From a virus (taxonomy: Duplodnaviria; Heunggongvirae; Uroviricota; Caudoviricetes): a stretch of 35,268 nucleotides of DNA. The DNA lies in IMG/VR virus record IMGVR_UViG_2778261214_000028, positions 1-35,268 of that record; one strand, 5' to 3'. Positions 1 to 3,000 of the stretch are shown piece by piece. Made by a program: the position numbers. Position 1 is the first letter of the stretch; every line of letters begins with the position of its first letter.

Positions 1-3000
1 GAATCCGATATTTTCCCCGGCCTGAAACTCTCTTGCGGGCTTGTTTAGTCTTACAGTAATCGAATGTGCCATTAAGCAGCAGCTCCTTCTAATTCGTCTC
101 GTCTGATGTTGTAAACGTCCTGCGCTTTGTGCTGCTCCGGTGTGCCTTCGAGCATCTTCCACGCTTTGGCGAACGCCTGTTTAAGCTCTTCCACGGTGTT
201 TTTCTGCAATGCTGCGTCAGTGAATGCTTTTAGAACCTGTTCAGGTGTAGGTGATGGTTTTGACTGCTTTGCTGCTGCGTTCTGCTGATGTTTATGCTCG
301 TCGGTATCTGCATCTTTCGCATCATCAATGCCGAACAAACCATTGAGGCAATACTTGCGTGCATAAGAGCTTGTAGCTCCCGTAACTTGTGCAGAATCCA
401 TTCCTTTCTTGCTTTCTTCCTCTCGTGCAAGAGCGGTTGCCGTATGACTGTTTTCGCCATCGGTAATAGTTGCCGTGGCTTTCACATAATACCGATCACC
501 AATCAACACAACTTCATCGCTGATTGATAAAAACAGGCCATTCAGTAACGGCTTAACGCCTTCAAGAATGTCTTCGCAGCTTCTGTATTTATATTTACCG
601 AATGAGTCGTACTGATTCTTTGGCGCGTTCAAGTTCTCCTGAATAGCTGCCAGTCTTGCGTAAAAGTCTTTGCTCATATGTTTGTTCTCAGAATGGGCAT
701 GGCCCAAGGAAATAACGCTGATTTAATACTTCAGTCTTTGCCGCATTTAAAAATACGCGAACACCTTCACGATCTCCCTTCTGGCGATACATTAACGCCT
801 GCTGCGTGTACATGCGTCTCTGTAACTTGCTCTCCTTCACTGTGGTTGCAAGTGACATGAATATCTCCTTCGTTACCGATTAATTCTTTCATCTGACGAA
901 TGAATTCTTCGTCTGACCAGTTATCTGTGAAACTCATTTCCTGCGATACCACGGAAGGTTGATAGCTGATTTCATCGCTTTATTTGCTTCAAGCCACATT
1001 TTTGAATCACCAATAAATCTGGCTATTACTGCTTTGTTTTGTGCCGCACGAAGCATCTGGTGATTAATGGCTATTTCATTGCGCATAACGCCTCCAGTTG
1101 TTTCTTTGCTGCTCTAATTAATTGTTTAACTCGGCGTGATAATTCAGATTCGTGCGGGTAGAAAGCGGACATGACGCCGCTACCCGCGAGCTGAAAGTGC
1201 ATCATGGGTAACTCCTTATATTTGATTGCATAACGAAAACGCCTCGAGTGAAGCGTTATTGGTATGCGGTAAAGCCGCGCTTAGGCGGCTGATGTTTCTT
1301 CTTTCAGGCTTTCGAGATATTTACGTGGGTCGTCGTAACATTGGCATTCGCTGTACCAATCCACCCAGCGATCAGTAAGCCCCACCTCTGATAAATCTTC
1401 ATCGGTAAGGCTCTCATCCCACATCTCAAGGCCGTTAGCATTGCAGTAATCAGGCTTGATGTTGTTGTCATACTGAAAGGCGTCATAATCAGCCAGTGCG
1501 CCCATCAGGCGAACACCCTCTTCAACACTTGCCACTTCTGCAATGAACGGTTTCATAGGTACTTGCGGGATATGCCAGACACGTAATTTCATATTTCCTC
1601 CGTCAAAAAAATCGCCCTCACATTGGAGGGCAAAGAAGATTTCCAATAATCAGAACAAGTCGGCTCCTGTTTAGTTACGAGCGACATTGCTCCGTGTATT
1701 CACTCGTTGGAATGAATACACAGTGCTTATTCGTACTAATAAAATACCCAATTTTCTGTTTCTTGGTTGTGTCCAAAGTTATATTCAATATCTGGTGTTG
1801 ATGTATCAATATTTTTCATCCCATCAACAAGAGTTGATACAACAGCCAAATCTTGTTTTATTCTCATTAAATGGTATTTCTTCCGGCGCAATAAACTTTC
1901 AATAGCAAGTTTCTTCGTTGGGAATGCAAAAGATCTTTCTGCATTTTTTGCTACTTTCTTAATTGCATATCTATTTCTCTTTTGTTTCCATTCCTGTAAC
2001 CACTGATTTGGTGCTGGTTTAAAATTAACAATCCAATGCGCAGGAACCAACCATGCATAATGCTCTGTCTGATGAAAAGCTATATATTGAAGTGCGAATA
2101 TTTTGATTCCATCTTCTTCAACTGTCGCCTGGAATCTCCAGAAAACAGGCATTCCATCATGTTCAGTTTCTGATTCAGGAAAAGGTACGCTCCATGATTT
2201 TGTCATATCTCACCTCAAATAAGTGGTTTGCTGTCTAATTTCATTTTCTGGCGACCAACACAAGTCACACCCATTTCACTGCGTGGCTTGCGGTAGTAAA
2301 GATTGTGCCTGTCTTTTAACCACATCAGGCTCGGTGGTTCTCGTGTACCCCTACAGCGAGAAAAATAGTAAAATCCTCTTACCCCTACAGTAAGAGAGTA
2401 ATTTATATGGATGTGTTATCTGGTATAACTGCCGCGAAACAGGCTTATGATCTGCTGAAGACAATAAAAGAAACCAGAGACGATGCTGTTATCGCTAAAG
2501 CTATTGGTGATCTACACCAAAGAATAACTGACTTACAGATGCTTAATGCGGAGCTCTCTGGCCTTTATCAGGCCGAGAAGGAGATCGCAATGAAGCTTCG
2601 AGATGAAAATAGAAAAATCAAGATGTTTGTTGTGCAAGCTGAGAATTATGAACTTCATACAACTGAAGGTGGTTCTGTCGTGTATCGACCTAAGAGTCAT
2701 TCCGATCCTTCTATTCAGCAGCATAACCTTTGTGCACATTGCTTCGGCGAACATAAAATATCGATACTTCAACCAAGCACGGTTACTATAAAATCTAATG
2801 GGTTCTTTGTGCATTCATGTCCTCGCTGTAAGAATGAATACCGGATGTATAGAGCGCCAGACCCTAAGCCTGTATATGTACCGCCGCTGACAAATTATTA
2901 ATTTTATTCCTGAAATGGCCTCTTCACCCCCTTACTTTGTCAGGGGGATATCTCCTTCAGTTTTGACCATTCGCCTTAATACTTTCCTTAAGTCGATGTA

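Follow-up and report, generated by a model that had tools for sequence, protein, structure and literature searches.

The gene orf156 lies in the early-left (pL) operon of a lambdoid, Shiga toxin 1a (Stx1a)-converting phage, IMG/VR virus record IMGVR_UViG_2778261214_000028. This stretch of 35,268 nucleotides is hereafter called the window, to which all coordinates refer, and its 1200-3800 region is 99.9% identical to LC744178 (Stx1a_10051). We consider it most likely that orf156 is an exchangeable early accessory gene, driven by pL and dependent on N, and that its 3' untranslated region (3' UTR) is the small RNA (sRNA) PreS/LPR1. The pL operon occupies the minus strand, on which we find a pL-like promoter (3764-3792) with a position weight matrix (PWM) score of 11.97, the N gene (3297-3569; Pfam N_peptide, 1.1e-15), and orf156 itself (1736-2206), an ATG-to-TAG open reading frame (ORF) of 156 amino acids with its TAG stop at 1736-1738. 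An earlier reading of this DNA, made from the sequence alone, had likewise placed orf156 inside the pL operon, and its position downstream of N bears this out. That sequence-only reading had further described orf156 as a classic moron, an autonomous unit with a local promoter and terminator. It is here that our conclusions differ, since the terminator is the shared tL2a and no promoter on the minus strand rises above chance.

The terminator downstream of orf156 (1605-1633, minus strand) is composed of a stem at 1612-1633 (UUGCCCUC-CAAUGU-GAGGGCGA; eight pairs, five of them G-C; -12.1 kcal/mol) that is followed by U7 (T7 at 1605-1611). Positions 1-6000 contain 14 terminator-like sites, this one included, where shuffled sequences lead to an expectation of 5.3 ± 2.5. 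The end of the T-run is separated by 3 nt from the GGAGG (1597-1601) of gene 17, the next gene of the operon (1281-1592, minus strand, ATG at 1590-1592; P22 gp17 family, Pfam GP17, 2e-53), after which come cIII, kil, and erf. Both the hairpin with its U-tract 3' of orf156 and its placement directly on the ribosome-binding site of the next gene had been noted in the sequence-only reading, and both are correct.

The same hairpin is annotated as tL2A in HK620 and as "terminator" in HK97 and 434. Furthermore, positions 1606-1726 match 120 of 121 nucleotides (99.2%) of the lambda ea10-ral spacer (lambda 33925-34045), and the sole mismatch is a base in the terminator loop. In lambda this spacer encodes LPR1/PreS, an Hfq-dependent sRNA located between ea10 and ral that occurs in forms of ~88 and ~68 nt and whose 3' end, a GC-rich hairpin with poly-U, is tL2a (bioRxiv 10.1101/2024.10.31.621285). 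The same study reports that PreS raises dnaN and aids lytic growth, that LPR1 is seen after induction and was not detected in a lambda cI857 lysogen at 30 C, and that PreS is conserved across thousands of genomes (bioRxiv 10.1101/2024.10.31.621285). Based on identity to lambda, the PreS/LPR1 homolog in the window would extend over 1606-1693 on the minus strand (~88 nt, its 5' end being deduced from the published length), with a processed ~68-nt form at ~1606-1673, and it would constitute the 3' UTR of orf156. The identity of 99.2% lies above the BLAST cut-off of at least 92% that the authors applied to LPR1 homologs (bioRxiv 10.1101/2024.10.31.621285), and a GC-rich hairpin with a poly-U 3' end is present at the early-left-operon terminator, as in lambda. 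This terminator would also serve as the Hfq-type 3' end of PreS. The 88 nt that end at 1606 have the same predicted fold and energy as their lambda counterpart (-30.0 kcal/mol each), and the larger segment 1590-1745 folds at -51.7 kcal/mol (z = -5.7 relative to shuffles). A search of 1-6000 against Rfam 15 at E ≤ 1 returned no match, and hence none for the PreS segment. Hfq binding, dnaN up-regulation, and lytic-cycle expression of PreS are known from lambda only.

The PreS segment is found in 323-327 phage records, mostly at an identity of at least 95%, and in 80 of these it is joined to orf156. Among 5426 complete Escherichia coli genomes, 2253 contain part of 1600-2310, and 561 have the segment joined to orf156. 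Elsewhere the gene ahead of the segment is ral (lambda), a Nun-like gene (434), an ORF of 83 amino acids (PA44), or the hkaP region (HK620). Judged from these comparisons, the terminator is a conserved backbone element and not orf156's own, because it occurs in 323 phage records of which only 80 carry orf156 and because tL2a falls outside the indel that distinguishes the orf156 locus from HK620.

Between the orf156 stop and the expected 5' end of PreS there is a second structure, a 14-bp hairpin (1692-1723, minus strand; -17.7 kcal/mol), which is kept in lambda (about 34011-34042) within the 120/121 match. The 3' base of this hairpin coincides with the expected 5' end of the ~88-nt LPR1, and the hairpin may be a processing or stabilizing element. 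We considered whether it might form part of a PreS promoter and rejected this, given that no plausible -35 or -10 hexamers are visible by eye in a stretch that was inspected without a scan. We know of no earlier description of this hairpin beside PreS.

Upstream, orf156 (ending at 2206) is separated by 200 bp from the next ORF, orf164, which begins at 2407. As orf164 is encoded on the opposite strand, this gap is a divergent intergenic region. The gap is made up of the orf156 Shine-Dalgarno sequence (GAGGTGAG, 2209-2216, minus strand, as read from the sequence), the 3' end of a relic N gene (2215-2301), and a segment homologous to the P22 sieB promoter region (2283-2401). The relic (minus strand) comprises the last 28 codons and stop of a phage-21-type N (LYYRKPRSEMGVTCVGRQKMKLDSKPLI*). 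Its DNA shares 96% identity with the 3' end of the DE3 (imm21) N gene, and its translation matches the C-terminus of N21 in frame; we regard the relic as non-coding because the phage has its own N at 3297-3569. The TGA stop of the relic (2215-2217) overlaps the orf156 Shine-Dalgarno sequence, so that in the ancestral order orf156 came directly after N. The relic corresponds to the 58-bp spacer between N and orf156 in H-19B, 933W, and HK97. A weak resemblance to N21 at the protein level (KDRHNLYY versus ERKQNRIYY) may extend into the sieB-upstream region common to lambda and P22.

The remaining segment, 2283-2401, shows 87% identity to P22 29629-29743, a stretch with the annotations "sieB promoter" and "sieB RNA start site", and it also matches the lambda sequence upstream of the lambda sieB ORF. 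The predicted promoter within it (2344-2374, plus strand; -10 TAAAAT) points to orf164 and away from orf156; a plus-strand PWM match at 2346-2374 scores 5.33. Its -10 hexamer is nearer to consensus than that of P22. On the minus strand, a consensus promoter scan of 2207-2406 found nothing, and the best sigma-70 PWM score upstream of orf156 (5.24) lies below the chance best of 6.39 ± 1.76 obtained from random 214-bp stretches of the same strand; for reference, pL scores 11.97 and pR 9.57. Thus, of the proposal that a 200-bp upstream region could hold a promoter for orf156, the size of the gap stands and the promoter lacks support, because this divergent region is accounted for by a relic N and a sieB-type promoter that faces away.

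The gene served by the outward-facing promoter would be orf164 (2407-2901, plus strand), a homolog of HK620 hkaP (phrog_1244), which is convergent with pL transcription and occupies the position and orientation of sieB. The possibility that orf164 encodes SieB itself was rejected, as there is no homology to P22 SieB (E = 1.5). By eye, the protein seems to combine a coiled coil at its N-terminus with a CxxC...CxxC zinc ribbon at its C-terminus. Transcripts from pL would run antisense to orf164, as with P22 sas/sieB. If any unit nearby is expressed from the prophage, orf164, behind its putative sieB-type promoter, is a likelier candidate than orf156.

Comparison with related phages defines what is exchanged at this locus. 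Relative to HK620, positions 1736-2305 constitute an exact 570-bp indel that comprises orf156, beginning at the final base of its stop codon, together with 99 bp ahead of the ATG. The flanks, 1608-1735 and 2306-3777, match L001 2501-2633 and L001 2634-4105, which are contiguous in HK620. The orf156 slot is filled by other genes in lambda, 434, PA44, and DE3. In HK97, 933W, and H-19B, orf156 begins 58 bp after the N stop, and upstream identity to the window covers 61-62 bp and ends there; PA28 shares ~92 bp upstream. In phi367, orf156 lies 65 bp after ral, and just 16 bp of upstream sequence are shared, the Shine-Dalgarno sequence included. Phages without orf156 retain the upstream linker in front of other genes, such as the 83-amino-acid ORF of PA44 and orf28-ral of DE3. 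We infer that the exchangeable unit is essentially the ORF between two shared linkers, because the shared upstream DNA shrinks to 16 bp in phi367 and the linkers also front other genes. Exchange of the ORF alone is the opposite of a cassette that carries its own signals.

Distant homologs also lie within early-left operons. Those of Pectobacterium and Brenneria prophages (55-65% identity) immediately precede xis-int, with upstream gaps of 51 and 41 bp, respectively, and the one of Rosenbergiella comes before a RecT/YqaJ/SSB recombination module. In phage Bas81, the homolog is the first gene of an operon that goes on to a ParB-like gene. At these four distant loci no promoter or terminator flanks the gene consistently and PreS is missing; the PreS segment is also absent from the locus of a Vibrio phage homolog.

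A real and conserved protein is encoded by orf156. Its match to phrog_1636 covers the entire sequence (E = 5.4e-112; residues 1-156 align with profile positions 1-156), and the protein is 98.7% identical to HK97 Gp45 and 99.4% identical to the product of 933W gene ST933Wp19. Among 20 homologs there are 40 invariant columns, and conservation extends down to 55-58% identity in other Enterobacterales; a profile search at E ≤ 1e-3 enlarges the family to 87 representatives, mostly of 130-160 amino acids. Members have in common a G...HET motif, the basic stretch K..K...RFAF.TK..A, a long helix, and FD at the C-terminus. An AlphaFold2 model built from an alignment with 68 diverse homologs has a predicted local distance difference test (pLDDT) score of 96; an earlier model from 20 close homologs (pLDDT 62.8) was set aside. 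In the predicted fold, a three-stranded antiparallel sheet spans residues 19-55 and is accompanied by two short helices, one short strand, and a helix of 33 residues. The gene is AT-rich, as the sequence-only reading had stated, with a GC content of 35.0% versus 46.3% for the whole window, which places it in the 3rd percentile among all 471-bp segments. Its GC content at third codon positions (GC3) is 25.5%, as opposed to 43-49% in N, gene 17, and erf.

Searches for function returned little. Pfam, NCBIfam, and PADLOC gave nothing beyond a chance-level PADLOC match to Cas1_II (E = 0.0097), so that PADLOC provides no defense-system family for orf156, and Pfam searches with 68 family members gave isolated chance matches only. 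A Foldseek comparison of the model with the PDB yielded nothing at E ≤ 0.001, and the best E-value in a profile search of PDB sequences was 0.65. Literature searches turned up nothing relevant on HK97 gp45 or on 933W L0079, the gene is annotated as hypothetical in every record, and the contexts of the distant Vibrio phage homolog and of P0052 offer no clue to function. In BFVD, 13 structural matches were found at E ≤ 0.001, none of them functionally annotated; these are uncharacterized proteins from phages of Erwinia, Rhizobium, Achromobacter, Delftia, Tenacibaculum, and Cellulophaga. Several of the phages that bear these structural relatives are presumably virulent, and if so this would favor a function in lytic development over one in lysogenic conversion. 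The position of orf156 and its structural relatives in many phages weakly suggest a role in lytic development or host takeover and not in lysogenic conversion.

Taken together, these observations lead us to the following scheme. The interval between N and cIII varies among phages, and its occupants elsewhere are ral, sieB, ea10, Nun-like genes, or gene 17. In the phage studied here, the cassette at this site would be orf156, inserted between an upstream linker, the 3' end of a relic 21-type N that supplied its ribosome-binding site, and a downstream linker, a segment of ~130 bp with PreS/LPR1 that ends in tL2a. Upon infection or after loss of repressor, pL would fire, and N acting at nutL would allow polymerase to pass upstream terminators and transcribe orf156, which would then be translated from its own Shine-Dalgarno sequence. 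It is established in lambda that N-modified polymerase reads through the tL2 cluster, as the sequence-only reading also assumed. Transcripts would stop at tL2a or run on into gene 17, cIII, kil, and erf, and PreS would arise, by termination or processing, as the 3' UTR-derived end of the orf156 mRNA, as it does from the ral message of lambda. In the repressed prophage, the orf156 unit would be expected to be silent.

Several considerations weigh against this scheme. A weak or non-sigma-70 promoter may lie upstream of orf156, and the LPR1 result from the lambda lysogen may not apply directly to phages that bear orf156. The AT-richness of the gene and the indel fit horizontally acquired genes, which are often expressed from the prophage. 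Additionally, the junction between orf156 and PreS is invariant in 80 of 80 records, which could mean that the two travel jointly. The scheme would further require that an N-antiterminated polymerase yield a terminated PreS 3' end.

The alternative of a classic moron, with a promoter in 2207-2406, a terminator at 1605-1631, and expression from the repressed prophage, can be judged by the features that define morons. As published, these are extra DNA, deviant GC content, an own promoter, an own terminator, and prophage expression (PMC3594210, citing Juhala et al. 2000). The description as a classic moron holds for two of these features: orf156 is extra DNA whose flanks adjoin each other in a related phage, as the exact indel relative to HK620 demonstrates, and its GC content and GC3 deviate. 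A strong terminator follows the gene, and the HK97 record even assigns a putative terminator to gene 45. However, that terminator is the tL2a/PreS element of lambda, present in ~240 phage records that lack orf156 and missing from the loci of the distant homologs. The in silico evidence for an own promoter is likewise negative: the consensus scan was empty, PWM scores are at or below chance, the upstream DNA is relic N followed by an outward-facing sieB-type promoter, and phi367 shares only 16 bp upstream of the gene. That many other phages have structural relatives of the protein also speaks against a moron, and we regard this interpretation as unlikely. It is more unlikely still that a cryptic weak promoter within the relic N (e.g., TTTACT-16-TGAAAT, 2273-2300) is active in lysogens and drives constitutive expression of orf156 and PreS. 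If it were, orf156 and the DnaN-boosting PreS would be constitutive in ~10% of complete E. coli genomes, including enterohemorrhagic E. coli, and would provide a route of lysogenic conversion that lambda itself lacks.

We also weighed whether orf156 and PreS form a co-selected module, in which the mRNA would serve as a dedicated PreS precursor or the protein would act together with the sRNA. The identity of the junction between the orf156 stop and the PreS segment in all six aligned contexts, and its occurrence in 80 phage records and 561 complete E. coli genomes, would be expected of such a module. PreS nevertheless stands behind other genes in ~240 records, and its function in lambda was demonstrated without orf156 (bioRxiv 10.1101/2024.10.31.621285). 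Conversely, the homologs in Pectobacterium, Brenneria, Rosenbergiella, Bas81, and the Vibrio phage occur without a PreS segment, which makes a module improbable. The idea that orf156 is a chance ORF in an AT-rich spacer could draw on the dearth of family assignments (no Pfam, NCBIfam, or PADLOC family beyond the chance-level Cas1_II match) and on its hypothetical status in all records. It is effectively refuted by full-length homologs at identities down to 55% with 40 invariant residues, and the 87 family representatives, the AlphaFold2 pLDDT of 96, and the canonical Shine-Dalgarno sequence ahead of the ATG make it scarcely credible. Our preferred interpretation remains that of a pL-driven, N-dependent accessory gene whose 3' UTR is PreS.

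This interpretation can be set against known systems. The downstream element resembles lambda tL2a/LPR1 (PreS) in its sequence (120/121 identity), its hairpin and U-tract, its predicted fold, and its placement before the ribosome-binding site of the next gene; it differs by the one loop base and in its neighbors, with orf156 in front where lambda has ral and gene 17 behind where lambda has ea10. The gene itself corresponds to HK97 gene 45, 933W ST933Wp19, and Stx2 phage 86 orf57 (phrog_1636; 98.7-99.4% protein identity), with the same strand and the same position before tL2a. There, 58 bp separate the gene from N, whereas here the hkaQ-like gene and the opposite-strand orf164 intervene. With lambda ral, lambda ea10, and P22 gene 17, orf156 shares the slot between N and cIII, the strand, the predicted pL/N read-through, and exchange between conserved linkers, although it has no sequence or detectable fold relationship to any of them. 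The predicted promoter of orf164 is like that of P22 sieB (BK000583) in sequence (87% identity), orientation, and distance to the start of the plus-strand ORF (~30 bp), yet it precedes a gene of the hkaP family that is not homologous to SieB. As for morons, the archetype is HK97 gp15, described as having its own promoter and terminator and expression from the prophage (Juhala et al. 2000 via Cumby et al. 2012, PMC3594210). On that account, orf156 is similar to gp15 in being extra DNA relative to related phages and in its deviant GC content (PMC3594210). In contrast to gp15, its terminator is a shared backbone element and it has no detectable promoter.

Other features of the region deserve mention. 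The N protein (3297-3569, minus strand) seems chimeric by eye: its N-terminus (NARNRRRARRQAQRE) is distinct and rich in arginine, a block in the middle (LARKIALKLSGCVRADKAASLGSLRCKKA) is identical to N of phage 21, and its C-terminus (CLPNVAIYAAGYRKSKQLTAR) is similar to N of H-19B. The hkaQ-like ORF (2932-3378, minus strand) has an ambiguous start. In its longest version, called as 148 amino acids, it overlaps the end of N by 82 nt, and its real start is probably the ATG at 3294, because the HK620 annotation gives 120 amino acids and the PHROG profile covers residues 29-148. Just downstream of cI, orf98 (4003-4299, minus strand; phrog_18389) is, at 29.3% GC, the most AT-rich gene of the region. 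Its product has a hydrophobic helix at the N-terminus, and a bidirectional terminator (3979-3998) follows the gene. This rex-position gene is a better fit than orf156 for a prophage-expressed accessory gene. Gene 17 is a cassette too, missing from HK620, and is flanked by the tL2a hairpin (1612-1633) and by a second terminator-like hairpin (1238-1257) that matches the annotated tL2B region of HK620 (window 1229-1267 = L001 2457-2496).

In summary, we would class orf156 as a known accessory gene of the pL operon, lying beside an sRNA and terminator that have likewise been described. The gene has been annotated before as hypothetical (HK97 gp45 and 933W ST933Wp19), and the terminator has been known since the work on lambda tL2. 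The annotation of the hairpin should accordingly read PreS/LPR1 sRNA gene and tL2a, not "terminator of orf156". PreS is the 3' UTR of orf156 in these Stx-converting phages, and expression or deletion work on orf156 would therefore also touch an sRNA for which an increase in DnaN and a benefit to lytic growth have been reported. More generally, the locus illustrates gene exchange among lambdoid phages, in which ORF-sized cassettes are traded between conserved linkers.

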